Shown here: in pieces, positions 171 to 16,412 of the stretch
Layout: the number at the start of each line of letters is the position of its first letter
How positions within the stretch are numbered: position 1 is the stretch's first letter
NCBI GenBank assembly: GCA_026014605.1
Contig: JAOZIC010000003.1
Span: 1 to 28,972, forward strand
DNA length: 28,972 nucleotides
Direction of reading: 5' to 3'
Origin: Candidatus Bathyarchaeota archaeon
GTDB taxonomy: Archaea; Thermoproteota; Bathyarchaeia; Bathyarchaeales; Bathyarchaeaceae
Position numbers and translations under genes: made by a program
The notes under the pieces: model-generated
Seen by the model: the letters and a program-made list of their open reading frames with translations, nothing else
What the model was told of the DNA's origin: nothing
Database searches by the model: none

Positions 171-1265
171 TTAGGAGTCAAATATGCTCAGTTTTTTGGT
201 TAGCTTCTGTTTTATTACAATAGTAGCTATCGCAGTGACGAGGAGAAGTAAGATAATCAACGATGGAAACTCTGGGATTACGAGTTCGTTCATTGTTGGA
301 TAGTTGTCTTGGTTGTTTTCGTTGATAACATAGGGGGTGTCTCCTGTGCCGTCTGCGTTGGTGTCTGCTCCGGTGTAGTCGCTCCAGTAGTTTCCTTTGT
401 TCCCGTTGTCCCAAATGTTGTCTGAATCATCAATGTCTACTTGAACAGAGTTATTGACAAAATTGTTTCCGTAAATTGTGTTTTGCCAACAATTTGTAAC
501 TACAAGTCCTTGTTCATTGAAGGCTATGTGGTTTTCAATGATGCTGTTTAGTCCTGCACCGTACAGAAGTATGCCTGTGTTGCTGTTGTTGGTTACAGTG
601 TTTCCAATCAGACTGTTATGCATATTCTCAAGGGCAACACCGTCACTGTTGTCTGCGACATAGTTGTTGTAAACAATGTTGTTTTCTGATGCCACCAAGT
701 CTAAACCGCGAAAATTATTTGTTATAACGTTTTCAGAAATGGTGTTGTTATCGGATTCTTTGACTGCGACACCTAAATCGTTGTTTGTTAGATTGTTTTT
801 TGTAACTGTGTTATTTGAAGAACGTTCAAGCAAAACAGCAAACTGGATTCCGTGAGAACCTTCAGTGTAAACATCTTCTACCACATTTCCAACAACAGTG
901 CTGTTTGAGCACCCAAAAAAATGAACCCCATAACCAAAGTTTTTGATTTGCAAGTTCTTTACTGTAATGTTGCTTCGGTGTTCAGCGTATACTCCTTTAG
1001 ACGAATCAACTCCACTTCCCTGAAGTGTAAAACCTGCACCGTCAATCACAATATTGTCTTTTTCCACAACAAAAGAACCGAAAACATCAGCAGTGAAAAC
1101 GTAAAGGTTCCCATCTATTTGTAACGTATCTGTTCCTTCAACAGAGCCGTCACTCCTAATGTAAAGTAGGTCATCTGCTTTCACAGGTTTAATTCTTGGA
1201 ATAGAAACAGCAGCAAAACAGACAACAAGCAACACAGCAAACAAAAAGACTTTGGAAAATGGCAC
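171..1265 (-). other. Embedded gene-equivalent (364 aa from in-frame GTG): signal peptide + beta-helix + PEF-CTERM
   Basis: GTG at 1265 begins VPFSKVFLFAVLLVVCFAAVSIPRIKPVKA; 1095 nt, same length as and collinear with the stand-alone paralog 7717..8811. Confidence 0.7.
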
Positions 1266-2681
1266 ATGATTACTTTGTTCAGGTTTTCTTTTTCTCAGGT
1301 TGACGAAGGACGCCACAAGAATACAGGCAGCAACTGAAACAACTACAGCAGCTACGTACAGTGGAGCGTTTTGGTTGGCGTCTATTTGGAAGTTAATAGT
1401 CTTTGATGAAAGCATGTTACCTGCGGTGTCCTTGGCGTAGAACGTTATACTGTGAGAGCCGTCAGATAAACCAGTTAATGTTATTTGTTCAGTTATTTCG
1501 ACCATGTCTTTTTCGTCAAGACTGTAGGCAGTCCAAGTTAAGGTCTCGTTCGAACTAAGAGATAACACAATTTCGTTTGTTTTGTATGTGCAGTTTTGTG
1601 GTGACGTAACTACAAGGGGAGGCGTTATGTCCCGAGTTAAAACACAGAGGTCCATCATGGGGTAATTGTCTGTGAAGTTTGCGTGAACCAAATAAGGCGT
1701 ATCGCCGATGCCGTCTGCGTTAGTGTCTGTGCCGTTGTAGCGGCTCCAGTAGTTACCTTCTGAGTTGTTGTCAAAAACGTTGGAGCTTTCCACATAGCCT
1801 ATGCCCACGTCGTTGGTGTTGTTCACGAAGTTGTTGCGGTAAATAGCGTTGTTCGCTACCACTTGACGGCGGTCTGAACTGCCAAGGGAAACACCAATTG
1901 AACAATTAATCAGGTTATTTTCATAAACAACATTGTTGCAACCATCTGTAATTGCAATTCCATTTGCGTATGGCGTTGTTATATTGTTTCCAAAAACTGT
2001 GTTGTATGAGCCCCCACTTGTTATAACAATTGTACCGTGATTTTTTTCGTTTAGTATGTTATTTTTTGAGATAATATTGTGGCAACTGTACACGAAAACG
2101 CTAGTGAGACAGTTTGTGAAACGGTTTTCGGAAACAGTTGTATACTTTCCGTCTTTAATTGTAACCCCACTAACGATTTCATTTCTAACAACAATATTGT
2201 AATCTGACCCAGAATTAATTTGAACTGACCCAATTATGTTACCAGTAATTTCGTTAGAACTTGAATAATCCAATATCACACTATTAATTGTGTTTTTAGC
2301 TAGGACATTATTTGTAGAAAAGTGAACATAAACGCCGTCTACGCATAGATTAATTACTGTCACGTTTGTTCTTGCTTCCAAAAATAATTCAGTATTACGT
2401 CTGTCTTTGTTTAAAGTAAAACCAGCACCATCAATTACAATATGGTCACATTCAATCGTCAAAGTGTGATTAAGAAGGTCACCAGTGAAAACGTAAATAT
2501 TCCCTTCGCGCCGAATCGGAACATCAGAAGGTTCAATACTTCCGTCAGGTTGTATGCAAATATCCACAGTTGGAAGCGGCGGAGGAATAAAATTGGCTAA
2601 CGCCGAGGGCGCAAACTGGAACCCAGTAAAAACAAAAAGAAGAATGAACAACAAAATAACCGTTGATACACGTTTCTTCAA
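171..2681 (-). CDS. Secreted parallel beta-helix (NosD/CASH-like) surface protein; apparent fusion of two genes (beta-helix + Ig-like + TM, then signal peptide + beta-helix + PEF-CTERM anchor)
   Basis: TTG start after a GAGGGGG RBS; N-terminal signal peptide; Asn-ladder repeats; two GNYWS..YxGxDxNADGxGDTPY caps; internal hydrophobic pair at aa ~440-495; C-terminal IPEFPS-TM-KQK. Confidence 0.85.
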   Translation of the reverse strand: MKKRVSTVILLFILLFVFTGFQFAPSALANFIPPPLPTVDICIQPDGSIEPSDVPIRREGNIYVFTGDLLNHTLTIECDHIVIDGAGFTLNKDRRNTELFLEARTNVTVINLCVDGVYVHFSTNNVLAKNTINSVILDYSSSNEITGNIIGSVQINSGSDYNIVVRNEIVSGVTIKDGKYTTVSENRFTNCLTSVFVYSCHNIISKNNILNEKNHGTIVITSGGSYNTVFGNNITTPYANGIAITDGCNNVVYENNLINCSIGVSLGSSDRRQVVANNAIYRNNFVNNTNDVGIGYVESSNVFDNNSEGNYWSRYNGTDTNADGIGDTPYLVHANFTDNYPMMDLCVLTRDITPPLVVTSPQNCTYKTNEIVLSLSSNETLTWTAYSLDEKDMVEITEQITLTGLSDGSHSITFYAKDTAGNMLSSKTINFQIDANQNAPLYVAAVVVSVAACILVASFVNLRKRKPEQSNHVPFSKVFLFAVLLVVCFAAVSIPRIKPVKADDLLYIRSDGSVEGTDTLQIDGNLYVFTADVFGSFVVEKDNIVIDGAGFTLQGSGVDSSKGVYAEHRSNITVKNLQIKNFGYGVHFFGCSNSTVVGNVVEDVYTEGSHGIQFAVLLERSSNNTVTKNNLTNNDLGVAVKESDNNTISENVITNNFRGLDLVASENNIVYNNYVADNSDGVALENMHNSLIGNTVTNNSNTGILLYGAGLNSIIENHIAFNEQGLVVTNCWQNTIYGNNFVNNSVQVDIDDSDNIWDNGNKGNYWSDYTGADTNADGTGDTPYVINENNQDNYPTMNELVIPEFPSLIILLLLVTAIATIVIKQKLTKKLSIFDS

Positions 2682-2713
2682 GGAAGACCCCCCTCAATTC
2701 ATTTCATACAATA

Positions 2714-4144
2714 CTACATTTCAGGTTTTGTTTTTCTTAGGCTTATGAAGACCCCCACAAGAACACAGGCAGCAACTGCAACAACTACAGCAGCCGCGTA
2801 CAATGGAACATTTTGGTTGGCGTCTATTTGGAAGCTAACAGTCTTAGATGACAGCATGTTGCCTGCGGTGTCCTTGGCGTAGACGGTTATGTTGTGGACA
2901 CCGTCAGATAAACCGGACAAGGTTTTTTGCACATCGAACTCTTTCATGTTTTTTGTGTCAAGGCGGTAGGCAGTCCAAGTTAAGGTTTTGTTTGAACTGA
3001 AAGTTAACGTGACTTCGTTTGTTGTGTAGGTGCAGTTTTCTGGAGACACAACTACAACAGAAGCGGTTATGTCTGAGCCCAAAACAAAAGGGTACATCAG
3101 GGGATAGGGGTCGGTAAAGTTTGCATGCATAACGTAAGGTGTGTCGCCTATGCAGTTGCCGTTAGTGTCGATGCCGTTGTAGCTGCTCCAGTAGTTGCCT
3201 TGGAAGCTGTTGTCAAAAACGTTGGAGCTTGCATTATAGACCATGTGTAGGTTTTGGGTGTTGTTCACAAAGTTGTTGTTGTAAAAACGGTTGTCTGCAA
3301 CTGTTTGGCTGGAGCCTGAAGACCCAAAAGAAATGCCTATTGGAAAGTTTGTGACAAGATTTTCATAGAAAACATTGTGGCAACCTTTGACAAGTTTGAT
3401 TCCACTTTGAGACCTGCCTGTAATGTTGTTCCCAAAAACAATGTTGTATGAACCAACTTGGGTTATGGTTATGCTGCCACCGCCGCTAACGCCGTTTTCT
3501 ATGCTGTTTTTTGAGACAAGGTTGTGACAATCATGCAGGGCAATGCTGGTAACGCAGTTTGTGAAATTGTTTTCAGACACTGTAGTGTAGTTGCTGTCTA
3601 TGGTTTTAACGCCAGTTGGACAAGTAATGGTGTTTCTAACAACAACATTGTGCAATGACCCAGAAGCCACGTCTACACCTGCAAAGTCTGTTCCCATTGA
3701 GATTGTGTTACCAACAATTTGATTATAGCACGAAGAACGCAACATCACAGTTCTAAAAGCGCAGTTGGAGATAGTAACGTTGGAAGATGAATTAACATAA
3801 ACTCCGCTCATGTTCAGGTTTTTGATGGTTACATTCTTTTGACCAGTTACCCGCAAATCGTTAAGAACATAAGCATTTTTTAAGGCAAAACCAGCCCCAT
3901 CGACAACTACGTTATCGCATTCAACGAAAAGAACATGCCTAACAAGGTCACCAGTAAAAACGTACACGTTACCGTCTTTTTGAATAGGCACATACGAAGG
4001 CATAACGCTTCCATCAGCCCTAATGTAAACGTCTACAGTTGGAGGTGCAGGAAAATAATTAGCAAACGCCAAATCAAACTGGGAACTGTAACAAACCGCG
4101 GTTAATACGAGAACCAAAACAAGGGTCGATGCGTTTTTCTTCAT
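2714..4144 (-). CDS. Secreted parallel beta-helix (NosD-like) protein with Ig-like domain and C-terminal TM anchor (no PEF motif)
   Basis: Signal peptide, YIRADGSV N-cap, beta-helix repeats, GNYWSSYNG cap, ...LSDGVHNITVYAKDTAGN Ig-like module, TM + RKTK; paralog of aa 1-470 of 171..2681. Confidence 0.88.
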   Translation of the reverse strand: MKKNASTLVLVLVLTAVCYSSQFDLAFANYFPAPPTVDVYIRADGSVMPSYVPIQKDGNVYVFTGDLVRHVLFVECDNVVVDGAGFALKNAYVLNDLRVTGQKNVTIKNLNMSGVYVNSSSNVTISNCAFRTVMLRSSCYNQIVGNTISMGTDFAGVDVASGSLHNVVVRNTITCPTGVKTIDSNYTTVSENNFTNCVTSIALHDCHNLVSKNSIENGVSGGGSITITQVGSYNIVFGNNITGRSQSGIKLVKGCHNVFYENLVTNFPIGISFGSSGSSQTVADNRFYNNNFVNNTQNLHMVYNASSNVFDNSFQGNYWSSYNGIDTNGNCIGDTPYVMHANFTDPYPLMYPFVLGSDITASVVVVSPENCTYTTNEVTLTFSSNKTLTWTAYRLDTKNMKEFDVQKTLSGLSDGVHNITVYAKDTAGNMLSSKTVSFQIDANQNVPLYAAAVVVAVAACVLVGVFISLRKTKPEM

Positions 4145-4180
4145 AGTGAAGACCTAACACTTTATGCTGTGCAGAATAAC

Positions 4181-4247
4181 GCATAAAACAGTTTTTGTAA
4201 AGGTTTCTTGACCAACAACTGATACATTTTAGTCAAAGTTTCTTGAC
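4181..4247 (-). promoter_or_regulatory. Promoter of 2714..4144 with two GTCAA-N6-TTGAC dyads upstream of BRE/TATA
   Basis: Dyads at 4232-4247 (GTCAAAGTTTCTTGAC, exact) and 4197-4212 (GTAAAGGTTTCTTGAC, 1 mismatch); on the minus strand followed directly by AAAAACTG-TTTTATGC, 36 nt before ATG. Confidence 0.7.
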
Positions 4248-4359
4248 AAAACAAACACGCAATAGCTATACGCAAAACGTTGTTGTTACTATGGTTTGAT
4301 GGGTATCTATAAATCATGAGTCTCCAAATATGTTGTCAACAGAACTGTGATGAGGTGGT

Positions 4360-4647
4360 TTGTTGAAGCTTCTGCTTGACGAAATGTTTGCGGGTTTGAA
4401 AGAATATTTTGAGATTTTAGGCTGGGAAGTAGTAACTGCTCAAGAGGCGGGTTTGCGTGGAGTAAAAGACCGCGCAGTTGTAGAATACGCAATAAAAAAC
4501 AATTTACTACTGGTAACCGAAGACCAAAAACCTGCAGAACTTGCAGAACTTAAAGGCGCTAAACATATTCTGATTTCTAGTGCATTGATTGCCAAAATTG
4601 CAGATGAACAGATAAAAGAAAAGTACCCCGACGTAACTCAGCAGTAA
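4360..4647 (+). CDS. DUF5615/Mut7-C-like PIN-domain protein (putative RNase)
   Basis: KLLLDEM...D37...LVTED acidic pattern in a 95-aa protein; GAGGTGG RBS at 4352-4358 (start TTG 4360 or 4363). Confidence 0.75.
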   Translation: MLKLLLDEMFAGLKEYFEILGWEVVTAQEAGLRGVKDRAVVEYAIKNNLLLVTEDQKPAELAELKGAKHILISSALIAKIADEQIKEKYPDVTQQ

Positions 4648-4703
4648 AGCATTAATCGTAAATCAACAAACATTGCAACCGCCCTCAAAGGTGTAGAACT
4701 ATT

Positions 4704-5318
4704 ATGGAAACAAAAACCAAGGTTTCCAAAGATTTTCCAAAAGGCAAAGTCGCGTACTTTGTAACAACTAATATTCACAAGTTTTTGGAAGCACACAACG
4801 TTCTGTCAGAATACAAAATAGCCACAGCCAAACTCAAAGTAGAAGCAACCGAAATACAGGACGACAGCCTAGAAAACATCGCCAAATTCAGCGCCCACGA
4901 CGCAGTCAAAAACAGCGGGTTACCCATTTTTGTTGGCGATGCGGGACTGTTTGTTGAGGCTTTGAACGGTTTTCCGGGTCCTTACTCCGCGTTTGTTTAC
5001 AGAACTGTTGGTCCGCAGGGAATACTGGATTTGATGCAGAACAAAACCAACCGAAACGCGTATTTTCAAACTGTAATCGCTTACTGTGAGCCCAACGGGG
5101 AGCCAAAGACCTTCTGCGGAAAGGTAGAGGGCACAATTTGCATGGAGCAGAAGGGTGATTTGGGTTTTGGGTATGACCCGATTTTTGTGCCTAACCGTGG
5201 TGATGGCAGAACCTTTGCCCAGATGTCTACGGATGAGAAAAATGTGTATTCTCACCGTGCTGAGGCTCTTCGTAAGTTTGCTGAATGGTATTCGGGTGTT
5301 GGCAAACGAATATTTTAA
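4704..5318 (+). CDS. rdgB: RdgB/HAM1 non-canonical purine NTP pyrophosphatase (XTP/dITP diphosphatase)
   Basis: FVTTNIHK, DAGLFVEALNGFPGPYS, GFGYDPIF and SHR motifs. Confidence 0.95.
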   Translation: METKTKVSKDFPKGKVAYFVTTNIHKFLEAHNVLSEYKIATAKLKVEATEIQDDSLENIAKFSAHDAVKNSGLPIFVGDAGLFVEALNGFPGPYSAFVYRTVGPQGILDLMQNKTNRNAYFQTVIAYCEPNGEPKTFCGKVEGTICMEQKGDLGFGYDPIFVPNRGDGRTFAQMSTDEKNVYSHRAEALRKFAEWYSGVGKRIF

Positions 5319-5368
5319 ATACCCGCATTCCCTCCGCCTGTAGGGAAGCTTTCGGAGAATAAAGAAAC

Positions 5369-5809
5369 ATGCCGAAACAAGAAAAGGGAATATCTCATCA
5401 AACTCGTCCAGTTACTAAGCGACCACCAGCATGGTGTAGATACACAGCAGAAGAAGTGGAAGCCCTAATCATGAAACTGTCAAAAGAGGGATATCCCCCA
5501 AGTATGATTGGAATAATTCTTCGTGATCAACATGGTATTCCGTTGACCACACCTGTCACTGGAAAATCTGTAACCGCAGTTCTTAAAGAACGAGGAGTAG
5601 TCTCCTCTTACCCAGAAGACCTAGAAAACCTGCTAAGAAAAGCAGCACGCCTACACGTTCACCAAGACAAAAACAAAGCAGACCTACACAACAAACGCGC
5701 ACTGCAGATGGTAGAAGCAAAAATCTACAAACTCTCAAGGTACTACAAACGCGAAGGCGTACTTCCAAAAGACTGGAAATACTCACCAAAAGCGATTTCG
5801 CTATTCTAA
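5369..5809 (+). CDS. rps15: 30S ribosomal protein uS15 (archaeal S15/S13e type)
   Basis: SMIGIILRDQHGIP, PEDLENLLRKA, H..DLHNKRALQMVEAKI.KL.RYYK, LPKDWKY. Confidence 0.97.
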   Translation: MPKQEKGISHQTRPVTKRPPAWCRYTAEEVEALIMKLSKEGYPPSMIGIILRDQHGIPLTTPVTGKSVTAVLKERGVVSSYPEDLENLLRKAARLHVHQDKNKADLHNKRALQMVEAKIYKLSRYYKREGVLPKDWKYSPKAISLF

Positions 5810-7716: not shown

Positions 7717-8811
7717 ATGAGTTCAAAATCAAAAATTGTTGCTACTTTAGTGGTTTGCTGTTTGTTTCTTTGTTACTGTCAAATTGGAACAGTAAAAGCA
7801 GTTGACCCAACGGTCTTTATCCAAGCTGACGGAAGCATAGAAGGAACAGATAACATAACCAAAAACGGTGACGTTTACATTTTCAAGGGAGATGTTACTG
7901 GGTCACTTTTTGTTGCTAAAAGCAACATAATAATCGACGGCGCAGGCTATACCCTTCAGGGAAGCAATACTGAAAACTCTAAGGGAATTTACAGCGATTA
8001 CAAAGACAATGTCAGAATAAGAAATCTTGTAGTCAAAGACTTTGATTACGGAATTTGCTTGATGTACGCTACCAACTTCAACATAACCGCAAACACGGTA
8101 ACCTCTGAGCGTTCAGGCGGCGAACCATGGGCAGAATATGGAATAATATTGCATAGCTCATCAAACTGCACAATTTCAGGAAACGACATCAAAAACAGCG
8201 CATGCGGCATAGCGGTTCAGAACTCTAACGATAACTCAATTTCCGAAAACTGGGCAACAGGTAACGGACGTGGCATCGAGTTAATTGGTTCACAGGGCAA
8301 CTTGGTTTCAGGTAACTATGCTGCAGAAAACGATGACGGGATAGTGGTTGAAAACCAAAACAACAGGGTTGTAGAAAACACAATCACAAACAACAACGAT
8401 GCAGGAATCTACATGTTCAGTGCAACCCTTAACGAAATCACCGGAAATGATGTAACAAATAACGAGCGGGGAATGCACATTACTTTTTGTACCCAAAACA
8501 GTATTTTTGGCAACAACTTTGCTGATAACACATTGCAAATCGACACTGATGCATCAGACAGCATCTGGGATGTTGACCAACAAGGCAACTATTGGGGCGA
8601 CTACACAGGCTCAGATAGCAACAGCGACGGCATAGGTGATACCGCATACACCATATCGGAAAACAACCAAGACAACTACCCGTTAATGGCTTCAGTTGAT
8701 GTAGAGGAAATCCCAGAGTTCGGTAGTTTCGCAGTTTTGATGGGCGCAGTAACGTTGGTTGCGGCTATTTTGGCTGTCTACAAACGAAAACTAAGTCATG
8801 CAAACGTTTAG
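7717..8811 (+). CDS. Secreted parallel beta-helix (NosD-like) protein with PEF-CTERM anchor
   Basis: Signal peptide ending VKA; FIQADGS N-cap; Asn-ladder repeats; GNYWGDYTGSDSNSDGIGD; IPEFGS-TM-KRK. Confidence 0.9.
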   Translation: MSSKSKIVATLVVCCLFLCYCQIGTVKAVDPTVFIQADGSIEGTDNITKNGDVYIFKGDVTGSLFVAKSNIIIDGAGYTLQGSNTENSKGIYSDYKDNVRIRNLVVKDFDYGICLMYATNFNITANTVTSERSGGEPWAEYGIILHSSSNCTISGNDIKNSACGIAVQNSNDNSISENWATGNGRGIELIGSQGNLVSGNYAAENDDGIVVENQNNRVVENTITNNNDAGIYMFSATLNEITGNDVTNNERGMHITFCTQNSIFGNNFADNTLQIDTDASDSIWDVDQQGNYWGDYTGSDSNSDGIGDTAYTISENNQDNYPLMASVDVEEIPEFGSFAVLMGAVTLVAAILAVYKRKLSHANV

Positions 8812-8886
8812 TCAAAATTTATTGACTAACTTTTTTCCAAATTTTATCGATTTGGTCAAAGTTTCTTGATAAAAACGTTTTTTACA
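8810..8886 (+). repeat. 77-bp intergenic direct repeat, copy 1 (dyad + T-tract + dyad + BRE/TATA)
   Basis: 68/77 identical to 10706..10782 without gaps; dyads at 8811-8826 (exact) and 8855-8870 (TTGAT), 44 bp apart. Confidence 0.9.
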
Positions 8887-10705: not shown

Positions 10706-10782
10706 AGTCAAGTTTTGTTGACTAGCTTTTTTCCAGTTTTTATCGTTTTGGTCAAAGTTTCTTGATAAAAACGCTTTTTAGA
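10706..10782 (+). repeat. 77-bp intergenic direct repeat, copy 2
   Basis: Dyads at 10707-10722 (exact) and 10751-10766 (TTGAT), 44 bp apart; then AAAAACGC-TTTTTAGA. Confidence 0.9.
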
Positions 10783-12652: not shown

Positions 12653-13919
12653 GTTTGGTTACTGCCAGAGGAACTAACATTTCGTCTTTGTTTAGTCCGC
12701 CGTGTTGTCCCCGTGGGGTGTAGTTTACTTCTTTGAAGTGGTCAAACCATACTGTTTCGTTCAGGTACGGCAAAATCAAAAGGTTACCTGCACGGTCTAG
12801 GAACTGTTTTTGGGGTTTTCCGGTGCCAAATAAGCCGTCGTCTATTGCTTGTTTGGTTTCGACGATTTTGGCTTTTGTGCCAACTGTTTTGTTTAGCAAA
12901 TCTTTAGTTTTGTCCATTTTTTCGTCTTGGACATGAAGAAAAACGTCCCGTGCACTGCCCGTGGGCAAAATAGGTTTACTGTCAGCTCCTGTTTTGAGGT
13001 TGTTAAGCAGTTCAGCAAAACCGTTCAGGTAAGTAGTGTGCTCGGGAACTATGTCCACTCCGCCGTGGTCTGAGGTCAACAGCAATAGGGTTTCTTTTGC
13101 TGTTTTGTTGTCGATTTTTTTGGTTAATTCCTTGTTTATCATGTACGAAATGGCGGATACTTCTGCGCCGTATTCGTAGCTGTTTGGTCCGTACTCGTGA
13201 GCGATGGTGTCAAGGTTGCTTAGGTGCACAAAGTAGTAGGCGGGTCCTGTTGTTTTTTCCAGTTTTTTCCTCAAGTTAACGATAAGATCGGATGTCTTCA
13301 ACGACGGAACAAAGGTGCTGTCTTTAAACAACATCTGTGAAGAGTTGCTGTAGGCGTACAACGAAAAAATGTGGGTAAAGGACTGTATATCCTCTTCTTT
13401 TAGCATACTCTGAATGTTTGTTTCATTAAACAACACTCGCAAATCAAAACCGCTTTTCACCAACTCGTTTCCGCCGTAAGACCCTATGGGCTCAAAACGT
13501 TGGGTGTTTACTATTTTGCCGACTTCTTTGATATAGATGTAGTACTCGAAAAGTCCGTGCTGTTGGGGTGTTAAACCCGTGTTCAAGGTTGTAAGGGCGT
13601 TGGTGGTTTGTGACGGAAAAATGCTTGTTAAAGGGTAGACGTCGCTTTTTTCGGTTAGTGTCCTCAAAAACTTGTGTTTTTCATAGCTGCGCAAAAACTG
13701 GTTGTAACCAAAGCCGTCCAAAATAAAGAGCACAACCTTGTCTACTCCGCTATTGTCTATGTTTATTGGAAGTTTTGGAAGACTGGTTTTAACGTCAAAT
13801 AAATCCAGTACTGTTCCGGGAATGTTTGAAATGCAGTTTTCTTCGTAGCAGGGATACAAAAAATCGCCGTCGTCGCGCTTGCGGATGGATTCGCTGAGCT
13901 CATGTATCATGAAAACCAC
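12636..13919 (-). CDS. Alkaline phosphatase-superfamily type I phosphodiesterase/nucleotide pyrophosphatase
   Basis: FILDGFG, FPSQT (Thr nucleophile), DTIAH, SDHG and GQHG metal-ligand motifs; start GTG 13919 or ATG 13910; 17-nt convergent overlap with the upstream gene. Confidence 0.88.
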   Translation of the reverse strand: MVFMIHELSESIRKRDDGDFLYPCYEENCISNIPGTVLDLFDVKTSLPKLPINIDNSGVDKVVLFILDGFGYNQFLRSYEKHKFLRTLTEKSDVYPLTSIFPSQTTNALTTLNTGLTPQQHGLFEYYIYIKEVGKIVNTQRFEPIGSYGGNELVKSGFDLRVLFNETNIQSMLKEEDIQSFTHIFSLYAYSNSSQMLFKDSTFVPSLKTSDLIVNLRKKLEKTTGPAYYFVHLSNLDTIAHEYGPNSYEYGAEVSAISYMINKELTKKIDNKTAKETLLLLTSDHGGVDIVPEHTTYLNGFAELLNNLKTGADSKPILPTGSARDVFLHVQDEKMDKTKDLLNKTVGTKAKIVETKQAIDDGLFGTGKPQKQFLDRAGNLLILPYLNETVWFDHFKEVNYTPRGQHGGLNKDEMLVPLAVTKLSNLN

Positions 13920-14144
13920 AGTTTCAGGAACAAATGCAATGAATACTGTACTATAAAGCTTCTTAGTTTATTTTTTGATGCGCATTTAAAGTGAATTTCG
14001 GCTTTTCTTTTGGGGTTTGTCACCTAAATTAATGTGTACGTAACATAGGAACTATGTATCTGTTTTATATTCTATTGAGATGAATACTATTATACATGCT
14101 CGATTCGCTCGTGTTGGAGCTTATCACGCCGTTTTGCATAGGAG

Positions 14145-16412
14145 ATGCATAACGAGATGAAAGCCGCTGTAACCGACCAATCACCCCAAAAAAGTTACGA
14201 CGAAAACCAAATAACCCGAATACTATGCGTCGACGATGAACAAGATTTTCTTGGCGGCACAAAAACAATTTTGGAACTAGAGCAGTCATTTCACGTAGAT
14301 ACGGTTTTGTCGGTTAAGGAAGCTCTGCAAAAAATGGCGTCTGAAGTCTTTGATGTTATTGTTTCGGATTATTTGATGCCCGGAAAAAACGGTTTAGAAT
14401 TTTTAAAAACCTTAAGAGAAAACGGTAACCAAATCCCATTTATTTTGTTCACTGGAAAAGGCAGAGAAGAAGTTGCAGTCAAGGCATTGAATCTTGGTGC
14501 TGATAGATACTTTAACAAATTTGGGAACCCTGAAACAGTTTACGGTGAGCTTGTTTATGGTATACATCAAGCTGTTGCTCAAAGAAGGGCGGAAAAAAGG
14601 ATATGGGACCGCGAAGAGCGGTTGCGGGCGATTATTGCTTCGTCTCCGGATTCGATGATTGTTATTAACCTTCAGGGAAATGTTACAGATTGTAATTTAG
14701 AGACGTTAAAACTGCTAGAGTTTTCTAAAAAGGACATAATTGGCAAACATTATCTAACGTTGGTAGCTCAAGAGCATCACCAACAACTTCACGAAGTAAC
14801 TAAAGAGTTATTCAAAAATGGGTTTGTGAGTAACATAGAGTGTTCTTTAGTGAAAAAAAATGGTTCTAAGATTCCAGTAGAGTATTCTGCAAATCTTCTC
14901 AGAGACGCATACGGCAATATTGCTGGCGGTGTGAGTTTGGCAAGAGACATCACCGAACACAAAAAGGCTGAAGAAGCACTGAAAAATTCTGAAGAAAAAT
15001 TCAGGAATCTTGCAGACCAATCTCCTAATATAATTTTCATCAACATAGACCGCAACATATTGTATGTAAACAAGAAATACGAAGAAGTCCTTGGCTACAC
15101 ACTAGATGAGTTGTCTTCTGATAAGTTAGACATAACTAACATAATGGCACCTGAAGATGTTGCTAGCATAAAGTCACATTTTTCTAAACACCGTAACGGA
15201 GAAGAGGCTCCGCCATTAGAGTGTTCGCTTATAACAAAAAAAGGAAAAAAAATTGACGTAATACTTACGACGAAACTTATCAAATACCATGAGCAAGACG
15301 CAGTAATCGGAACCATACATGACATTACCAAAGAAAAAAAGGTAAAAAAGCAGTTGCGGGAGCAGCAAGAACTGCTTGAATTGGTGACAGAAAACGTTGG
15401 TGCTGGAATTGCAATGATTTCAAGGGATTTTCAGATATTGTGGATGAACGACGTATTAATGAAATCTTCTAAAGCAAAAACTGGAAAACCTTGTTATTCC
15501 ACATTAGGGCAACAAAAAAGTGTCTGCCCCGATTGTCCAGTAAAGGAAGTTTTTGAAACTGAAAAAAAGCTGGTCACACAAGAAAAACAATTTGCAATTC
15601 GCGGCGAAAGTTTTGTGGAAATTACTGCTACGCCCATCAGAGACAAAAAAGGAAACGTCACAGCAGCGTTAGAACTTGTTATCCCAATAACTAAACGAAA
15701 GAAAGCCGAAGACAAATTGAAAGACACATTAAATGAACTAGAAACTGCGAACCAAAAGTTGGGTGTTCTTGGAAAACTAACCCGCCACGATATAAAAAAC
15801 AAGCTTTCAACGATACTAAACAATACTTACCTTGCTAGAAAGCAACTCGCAAATAATGACGAAGCTCTAACGCATCTGGTGGACATAGAATTAACTGTTG
15901 ACCAGATAGAGAAAATTTTTGAGTTTTCAAGGCTCTACGAACAACTAGGCACTGAAAAGCTGTCATACATCAAAATAAACAAAAAAATTGAAGAAGCAAT
16001 TTTGTTGCAGTCATCTTTAGAAGATATAAAAATATTGAACAAATGTAACGGCTTAACAGTGAAAGCAGATTCGTTACTAAGGCAGGTCTTTTACAACTTA
16101 ATTGAAAACTCGCTAAAACACGGACAAACAGTCAACAAAATAGAAATCTACTACAAAGAACGAAAAAACGACCTCAAACTAATCTATAAAGACAATGGCG
16201 TTGGCATACCAGAACACGCAAAAGAGTTAATCTTCAAAGAAGGCTATGGCTCGGGCACAGGATACGGACTTCACTTGATAAGAAAAATCTGTGAAGGATA
16301 CGGATGGAGTATCACCGAAAAGGGTACGGTTGGAAAAGGAACAAAATTTGTTATCGTCATTCCAAAAATGGGCAAAAATGGAAAACCTAATTACATCGTC
16401 AAAAAAGAGTGA
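14145..16412 (+). CDS. Cytoplasmic hybrid sensor kinase REC-PAS-PAS-PAS-HisKA-HATPase
   Basis: ILCVDDE/IVSDYLMP/FTGK receiver; three PAS/PAC repeats (..RDITEHKKAE); RHDIKN H-box; NLIENS, DNGVGI and GTGYGL boxes; no TM segment. Confidence 0.92.
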   Translation: MHNEMKAAVTDQSPQKSYDENQITRILCVDDEQDFLGGTKTILELEQSFHVDTVLSVKEALQKMASEVFDVIVSDYLMPGKNGLEFLKTLRENGNQIPFILFTGKGREEVAVKALNLGADRYFNKFGNPETVYGELVYGIHQAVAQRRAEKRIWDREERLRAIIASSPDSMIVINLQGNVTDCNLETLKLLEFSKKDIIGKHYLTLVAQEHHQQLHEVTKELFKNGFVSNIECSLVKKNGSKIPVEYSANLLRDAYGNIAGGVSLARDITEHKKAEEALKNSEEKFRNLADQSPNIIFINIDRNILYVNKKYEEVLGYTLDELSSDKLDITNIMAPEDVASIKSHFSKHRNGEEAPPLECSLITKKGKKIDVILTTKLIKYHEQDAVIGTIHDITKEKKVKKQLREQQELLELVTENVGAGIAMISRDFQILWMNDVLMKSSKAKTGKPCYSTLGQQKSVCPDCPVKEVFETEKKLVTQEKQFAIRGESFVEITATPIRDKKGNVTAALELVIPITKRKKAEDKLKDTLNELETANQKLGVLGKLTRHDIKNKLSTILNNTYLARKQLANNDEALTHLVDIELTVDQIEKIFEFSRLYEQLGTEKLSYIKINKKIEEAILLQSSLEDIKILNKCNGLTVKADSLLRQVFYNLIENSLKHGQTVNKIEIYYKERKNDLKLIYKDNGVGIPEHAKELIFKEGYGSGTGYGLHLIRKICEGYGWSITEKGTVGKGTKFVIVIPKMGKNGKPNYIVKKE

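Follow-up and report, generated by a model that had tools for sequence, protein, structure and literature searches.

The FbcH cytochrome b-c1 precursor of Bradyrhizobium japonicum is encoded by one open reading frame (ORF) and is cut at an internal signal peptide to give two membrane proteins. The bunyavirus Gn-Gc polyprotein likewise comprises a single ORF for two membrane proteins, split at an internal signal by host signal peptidase (PMC7926653). In astrotactin-1 and astrotactin-2, the signal peptidase of the endoplasmic reticulum (ER) cuts at the second transmembrane helix, and the degree of maturation is unequal between the two (bioRxiv 10.1101/493858). A literature search returned no description of recurrent fusions of archaeal surface-protein cistrons, including in Bathyarchaeia. 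The gene family considered here is known, and so are polyproteins resolved by signal peptidase; it is their combination, as recurrent archaeal fusions, that the search did not find.

Here we describe a gene of this layout in a 28,972-nucleotide (nt) stretch of DNA (the window) from a Candidatus Bathyarchaeota archaeon (assembly GCA_026014605.1, contig JAOZIC010000003.1). The gene, A2::B, occupies 171..2681 on the minus strand and joins two types of surface protein, A and B, in one frame. We favor the interpretation, whose chances we put at about even, that two translationally coupled cistrons truly became fused in frame by loss of a stop codon and that signal peptidase resolves the product. 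The astrotactins match the predicted topology of A2::B, and we propose that maturation occurs at the second helix here as well; they differ in being eukaryotic ER proteins (of vertebrates) with an unrelated sequence, in not being fusions of paralogs, and in having disulfide-linked fragments. For FbcH and the viral glycoproteins, also unrelated to A2::B, cleavage is experimentally proven, whereas for A2::B it is predicted.

The 836-codon reading frame and its architecture

Positions 171..2681 of the minus strand form a single ORF, open for 836 codons from a TTG at 2681. Residues 27-469 are 57% identical (E 1e-146) to the neighboring 476-amino-acid (aa) protein A1, and residues 485-828 are 45% identical to, and collinear with, the product of a 364-aa gene at 7717..8811 (E 1e-105). 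Both halves are found as complete separate genes in the same window, one of the features of a Rosetta-stone fusion; a separate pair in a related genome is seen only for the analogous P0012 family (in G138). An in-frame GTG with its first base at 1265 is codon 473; from it to the stop at 171 there are 1095 nt, that is 364 aa plus the stop, so that residues 473-836 have exactly the length of the paralog at 7717..8811.

We built an AlphaFold model of the 836-aa protein on a 40-sequence alignment, with a mean predicted local distance difference test score (pLDDT) of 85.8. In the model, a beta-helix (41-345), a beta-sandwich (356-433) and a helix (441-464) are followed by a low-confidence linker and then by a helix (475-491), a second beta-helix (505-795) and a terminal helix (807-835). 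Hydropathy analysis gives four hydrophobic segments (3-24, 439-462, 473-497 and 800-825), and Pfam places NosD and Beta_helix repeats in both halves. The match of the beta-sandwich to Big_13 (E 1.2e-4, 22.9 bits) lies under the Pfam cut-off of 27. The C-terminal tail consists of IPEF, a 17-residue hydrophobic stretch and KQKLTKK, and scores 21.5 bits against TIGR03024, just under the cut-off of 23. The cleavage site of the A2 signal peptide is placed by the -3/-1 rule. The features of the fused gene, and the A-type gene beside it, are as follows.

171..2681, minus: fused ORF A2::B, 836 aa, TTG start; also present as one 836-aa protein on one contig in NCBI nr
2595..2681, minus: N-terminal signal peptide of A2, residues 1-29, ending ALA/NF (hydropathy; model helix 5-22)
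1647..2573, minus: right-handed beta-helix of A2, residues ~37-345 (Pfam NosD and Beta_helix; pLDDT mostly >90)
1380..1637, minus: immunoglobulin (Ig)-like beta-sandwich, residues 349-434 (sub-threshold Pfam Big_13; model strands 356-433)
1302..1361, minus: transmembrane anchor of A2, residues 441-460 (hydropathy; model helix 441-464; aligns to the anchor of A1)
1278..1448, minus: tract 87-90% identical in DNA to the 3' end of A1 (2720-2890), ending exactly at the GAA before the junction
1266..1277, minus: junction proper, CAA AGT AAT CAT, the only 12 nt that match neither parent type; holds an out-of-frame TAA
1251..1301, minus: 17-residue basic loop NLRKRKPEQSNHVPFSK, residues 461-477 (five Lys/Arg, one Glu)
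1176..1265, minus: internal signal peptide of B, residues 473-502 (in-frame GTG, 17-residue core, PRIKPVKA, predicted cut VKA/DD)
282..1166, minus: right-handed beta-helix of B, residues ~506-800 (Pfam NosD, E 5e-51; pLDDT ~90-97)
210..278, minus: PEF-type C-terminal sorting tail, IPEF, hydrophobic stretch, KQKLTKK (TIGR03024; helix 807-835)
2714..4144, minus: A1, 476-aa paralog with signal peptide, beta-helix, Ig-like domain and transmembrane anchor, ending LRKTKPEM-stop

This is the layout of a polyprotein resolved by signal peptidase: a signal at residues 1-29, a transmembrane segment at 441-460, a basic loop at 461-477 and a second hydrophobic segment at 478-502 that ends in VKA. The internal signal peptide, modeled as helix 475-491, is collinear with the signal of the 364-aa paralog, which ends VKA/VD. 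By the positive-inside rule, the basic loop is predicted to be cytoplasmic. A sequence-only reading of this stretch had described one 836-aa ORF with an A part of ~470 aa and a 364-aa B part beginning at GTG 1265, and every element of that description was confirmed. It had also proposed the order beta-helix/Ig, transmembrane segment, basic loop, internal signal, beta-helix and PEF anchor, on which Pfam, hydropathy and AlphaFold agree.

From the observed ORF, domain order, parent types, enzymes and conserved analogues, we infer a topology, a cleavage, a 1:1 ratio and an origin. An A-type cistron (beta-helix, Ig-like domain, simple transmembrane anchor) would have stood upstream of a B-type cistron (beta-helix, PEF-type tail), and the A gene would have lost the stop at its extreme 3' end, perhaps as a by-product of gene conversion from A1 into the 3' end of A2. 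The ribosome would now make one precursor, whose first signal peptide would export the A2 ectodomain. The A2 anchor would stop transfer, leaving the 17-residue basic loop in the cytoplasm, and the retained B signal would start export anew, with its N-terminus on the inner and its C-terminus on the outer side of the membrane. The most likely next step would be a cut after VKA502 by archaeal signal peptidase I, releasing mature B (DDLLYIR), which the PEF-type tail would hold at the surface; A2 would be left anchored by a two-helix hairpin. Such a fusion may be self-resolving and nearly neutral, or may enforce equal amounts of both proteins. Since the anchor of A2 and the export signal of B are both retained in the middle of the ORF, the cell probably still cuts the product in two. 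The junction-spanning peptide of an uncut product would be KPEQSNHVPFSK, whereas a cut product would have mature B beginning DDLLYIR.

Fused and unfused relatives

The comparative evidence is what moved our interpretation most. We scanned ~300 long relatives for internal hydrophobic pairs and found the signal-anchor-signal-anchor layout to be rare, with three proteins in two families. The ~300 include 105 proteins from a search for longer relatives of unit B, none of which has this layout. The first family is represented by P0016 (988 aa), for which six distinct full-length variants were found on 19 contigs from JGI, ENA and Logan, with the join YFKKHNHK-VEKNVALAKSS. A protein 81% identical to it (L014) from another sample is fused at the same place, though the residues there differ (YFKKHNRE-VGKDVALAKSS), and in a 68% relative (L015) unit 2 is a free-standing 474-aa gene in the same neighborhood. 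The second family comprises P0012 (733 aa) and P0143 (714 aa; three members on seven contigs), which align collinearly over their whole length at 46% identity. Anchor, basic loop and signal peptide all fall within the aligned stretch, with small residues at -3/-1 (VNA and VQA).

These proteins share with A2::B the superfamily and the order signal, ectodomain, transmembrane segment, basic loop (11-17 residues), internal signal, ectodomain and anchor. They differ in being conserved and repeatedly assembled, whereas A2::B is a singleton. P0016 is only ~30% (29-33%) identical to A2::B, and P0012 and P0143 fall in the same 29-33% range. A common origin with the P0016 fusion was considered and rejected, as A2 is far closer, at 57%, to the unfused A1. 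The fusion events appear independent for the same reason, and from these comparisons such fusions would have arisen at least three times, with at least two of them kept over long divergence.

Unfused counterparts may represent the precursor state. In G138, a 96% complete genome, the pair homologous to P0012 is unfused: a 340-aa gene ends in a TAA that runs straight into the ATG of a 377-aa gene, with both in one frame, and the final codons of the 340-aa gene contain a GGGGTGA motif. Genes in G012 and G015 are packed likewise, with zero spacers or ATGA overlaps. Zero-spacer packing in the same frame leaves these arrays one mutation away from fusion. The arrays on G138:C28, G012:C3 and G015:C3 resemble A2::B in gene types and orientation; unlike A2::B, whose junction has neither, they have a stop and a Shine-Dalgarno motif in the last codons of the upstream gene.

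As a separate observation, five genes at 398-5106 of L020 (G138:C28) and two at 1498-3876 of L007 (G012:C3) are packed with 0-nt spacers or 4-8-nt overlaps. Each Shine-Dalgarno motif lies inside the last codons of the previous gene, giving protein tails such as KRGVKS or KREGG.

An alternative is that the A2::B gene is real and the internal signal serves as a second transmembrane helix of one three-helix protein with two ectodomains, or that the fusion is a recent accident heading to decay. We consider this unlikely. In its favor, A2::B is a singleton, with no conservation evidence for this particular join, the family turns over quickly and has frameshifted copies in relatives, and some internal signal-like helices escape signal peptidase, as the unequal maturation of the astrotactins illustrates. 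However, the c-region retains a proline helix-breaker and V/A at -3/-1, as do the N-terminal signals of the paralogs. The hydrophobic core has 17 residues, the length of a signal peptide, versus 20 for the anchor, and the conserved fusions keep small -3/-1 residues across the divergence of the second family (46%).

Returning to a fusion that is cut, a broader possibility, which we hold only tentatively, is that Bathyarchaeia repeatedly turn coupled surface-protein cistrons into single ORFs resolved at a retained internal signal, with A2::B a young instance just after stop loss. If this is true, these archaea would have a polyprotein strategy that is cellular and not viral, with partner surface proteins inserted together at a fixed 1:1 ratio. 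If A2::B itself is real and cut, it would parallel, in a simple form and in a cell, the glycoprotein polyproteins of viruses. A retained export signal would then make an in-frame fusion of two secreted, anchored proteins self-resolving, which would explain both the recurrence and the persistence of such fusions in archaeal surface-protein arrays. A2::B would also offer a concrete, testable substrate for archaeal signal peptidase at an internal site, and would warn annotators that some very long archaeal surface proteins represent two mature proteins. For experiments, the conserved fusions P0016 and P0012/P0143 are better starting points than A2::B, a singleton of uncertain reality.

The junction and its reading frame

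The assembled sequence at the junction (within window positions 1200-1330) is CAAAGTAATCAT. On the minus strand it reads AAA CCT GAA CAA AGT AAT CAT GTG CCA, and the 3' end of A1 reads AAA CCT GAA ATG TAG. In the -1 (= +2) frame, the junction holds a TGA (in CCTGAA) and a TAA (in AAGTAA), the latter 4 nt ahead of the GTG. A1 and A2 are homologous in DNA up to and including CCTGAA (window position 1278) and no further, which leaves 12 nt before the GTG; an ancestral stop at the junction is for this reason deduced, not seen. Within the 171-nt tract at the 3' end of A2, identity to A1 reaches 96% at synonymous third positions, as compared with ~60% nucleotide identity further 5', which points to a recent gene conversion that ended right at the join. 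The conversion-like tract (1278-1448 versus 2720-2890) covers the Ig tail and the transmembrane anchor. The conversion event may also be what moved the frame out of register with the native stop.

The sequence-only reading had attributed the fusion to a one-base loss at the stop. This is less compelling, because the homology to A1 already ends at GAA, where the conversion tract ends too, and because out-of-frame stops are common in this A-rich DNA. Its suggestion of a real polyprotein gained in plausibility, since the same join is conserved in two other Bathyarchaeia lineages. Its proposal to look for the orthologous junction in related genomes gave no support: among 30 relatives of the genus and order, we found no ortholog of the A2::B pair or of its junction, and the closest syntenic region, G015:C3, has different neighbors.

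The main alternative at this locus, which we judge unlikely, is an assembly or consensus error, or a minority variant, such that the true junction is one base longer (for example CAAAAG TAA) and encodes an A2 of ~470 aa and an ordinary 364-aa B. The locus would then be two ordinary genes, and only P0016 and P0012/P0143 would remain of interest. The absence of an ortholog in the relatives is the first of several points that weigh against a genuine, cleaved fusion. In all the collections searched, the exact A2::B gene is seen once, on one contig of one metagenome-assembled genome that is 79% complete and fragmented (225 contigs, 97 gaps of 100 N). Across 5.8 billion clusters, no protein fragment of >57% identity spans the join, and the only protein of near length is the window's own. 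A gapped DNA pattern across the junction has no match in metagenome contigs. Adding one A to the CAAAG run would create Q-K-stop, 4 nt short of the in-frame GTG, and leave two genes of ordinary size that match the paralogs; a recent one-base change or an error would be expected to leave just such a trace. Tight stop/start packing is normal in these arrays. The cleavage at the internal site of the archaeal fusions is itself predicted from their sequences.

Frame damage is also seen elsewhere in the family. On contig C3 of G015 (L013), the syntenic region of a sister species, two family genes, at 3754-5512 and 12962-14170, each lie in two frames (283+318 and 163+193 aa); the splits reflect either decay to pseudogenes or errors in the consensus of hypervariable surface genes. 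Such frameshifted surface genes imply that frame errors or decay are frequent in the family, a further point against a genuine fusion.

Other observations speak against an error. The candidate indel site has no long homopolymer but an A run of three bases, and a 3-to-4-base A run is atypical of short-read error sites. In this genome, all family members keep to one frame each, and no general indel damage is seen: the mean ORF of the genome is 296 aa, and the 24 ORFs of the window cover 92% of it. The bin holds no alternative contig for the junction. As the homology to A1 ends before the supposed stop, the neat TAA may be a chance triplet in A-rich DNA, and CCTGAA contains this out-of-frame TGA in A1 as well. 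Other proteins with this design are conserved, real fusions. In a two-gene version, B would be without a Shine-Dalgarno motif; this argument is weak, since a crude Shine-Dalgarno test is positive for only ~44% of tightly coupled starts in this genome. On balance, the indirect evidence leans toward a real sequence at the junction.

If the ORF is real, B could also, or mainly, be made by internal initiation at GTG 1265, with the fusion protein a minor by-product. The in-frame GTG stands exactly where a B-type protein should begin, and the linker FKGGTKAL of P0012 could encode a retained Shine-Dalgarno motif (judged from the protein only). In A2::B, however, there is no Shine-Dalgarno-like motif in the 15 nt upstream of the GTG, and no internal promoter or operator before it (a sigma-70 and terminator scan is uninformative for archaea), so that nothing obvious marks B as a separate cistron. 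In L014, a conserved fusion, the internal GTG is likewise not preceded by a Shine-Dalgarno motif, whereas the unfused arrays have one. Termination-reinitiation is not possible without an upstream stop, and translating ribosomes would occlude the site. We regard internal initiation as very improbable.

Less probable still, to the point of being negligible, is a programmed -1 frameshift or slippage in the A-rich tract AGAAAAAGAAAAC, which would yield A2 alone (ending at the TGA) alongside the fused product. An A-rich run does lie just upstream, and a -1 shift there meets the TGA within three codons. Read in the zero frame, however, the run does not form a canonical X XXY YYZ heptamer, and its A5 is too short for transcriptional slippage. 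The downstream RNA folds worse than its shuffles (z +1.41; 188/200 shuffles fold at least as well), and we rejected programmed frameshifting for lack of a stimulatory RNA structure.

Family, candidate processing enzymes and transcription context

A2::B scores well above cut-off with PF05048 (173.6 bits, cut-off 23.6), PF13229 (115.4, 25.9) and TIGR03804 (67.3, 19.45), placing it among the beta-helix/NosD-domain proteins. It reaches only 151.9 bits with TIGR04247, the model for NosD proper (N2O-reductase maturation), against a cut-off of 300, and profile searches of the window proteins found no nos genes. The best single-domain fold match is NosD (7o0y_A; TM-score 0.59 on the target over 399 columns), followed by CASH-type alginate epimerases and lyases (AlgG, PL6). 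Each ectodomain has the fold of NosD and of the CASH-type enzymes. Given the failed NosD cut-off, the lack of a nos operon context and the presence of at least 27 paralogs in the 1.63-Mb genome, A2::B belongs to a surface-protein family and is not an N2O-reductase maturation factor.

The genome encodes an archaeal signal peptidase I (G000:C156:15184-15654; TIGR02228, 105.6 bits versus a cut-off of 51.85). A protein with the exosortase/archaeosortase signature was also identified (L019:1174-1890; TIGR04178, 39.1 bits, cut-off 23), which stays under the ArtC model (36.3 versus 100) and the thaumarchaeosortase model (56.8 versus 250). The sole archaeosortase-family gene found (G000:C156:9812-10075) lies ~5 kb from the signal peptidase I gene (15184-15654) on the same contig.

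Two features upstream of A2::B bear on its expression.

2682..2713, minus: spacer of 32 nt between A1 and A2, with a Shine-Dalgarno-like GAGGGGGG 6 nt before the TTG and no T-run
4197..4247, minus: two GTCAA-N6-TTGAC operator dyads (4197-4212 and 4232-4247), just upstream of the A1 ATG at 4144

Because the spacer lacks a T-run, A1 and A2::B are probably co-transcribed. With the Shine-Dalgarno-like motif in that spacer and a T-run located after the final stop of A2::B, the sequences of A1, A2 and B look like one transcript. GTCAA-N6-TTGAC occurs 8 times in the window, versus 1.8 matches expected by chance. No such dyad lies near the junction, and the pair upstream of A1 is the only promoter-type element found for the A1/A2::B unit. 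Paired dyads stand upstream of three surface-protein genes of the window (4197-4247, 8811-8870 and 10707-10766). The window also encodes an archaeal RecJ and ribosomal protein S15, in keeping with an archaeal source.

Elsewhere in the genome, on contig 43 (L022; G000:C43), a gene at 3245-4882 encodes a 545-aa polytopic, NapH/NosR-like protein with Fer4_5 and 4Fe-4S dicluster domains, whose N-terminal outside domain has an anchor-like end (PF...TM...KKK). It is followed immediately, at 4889-5791, by a NosD-domain beta-helix gene, and this pair may represent a further fusion, or else a redox partner for the family.

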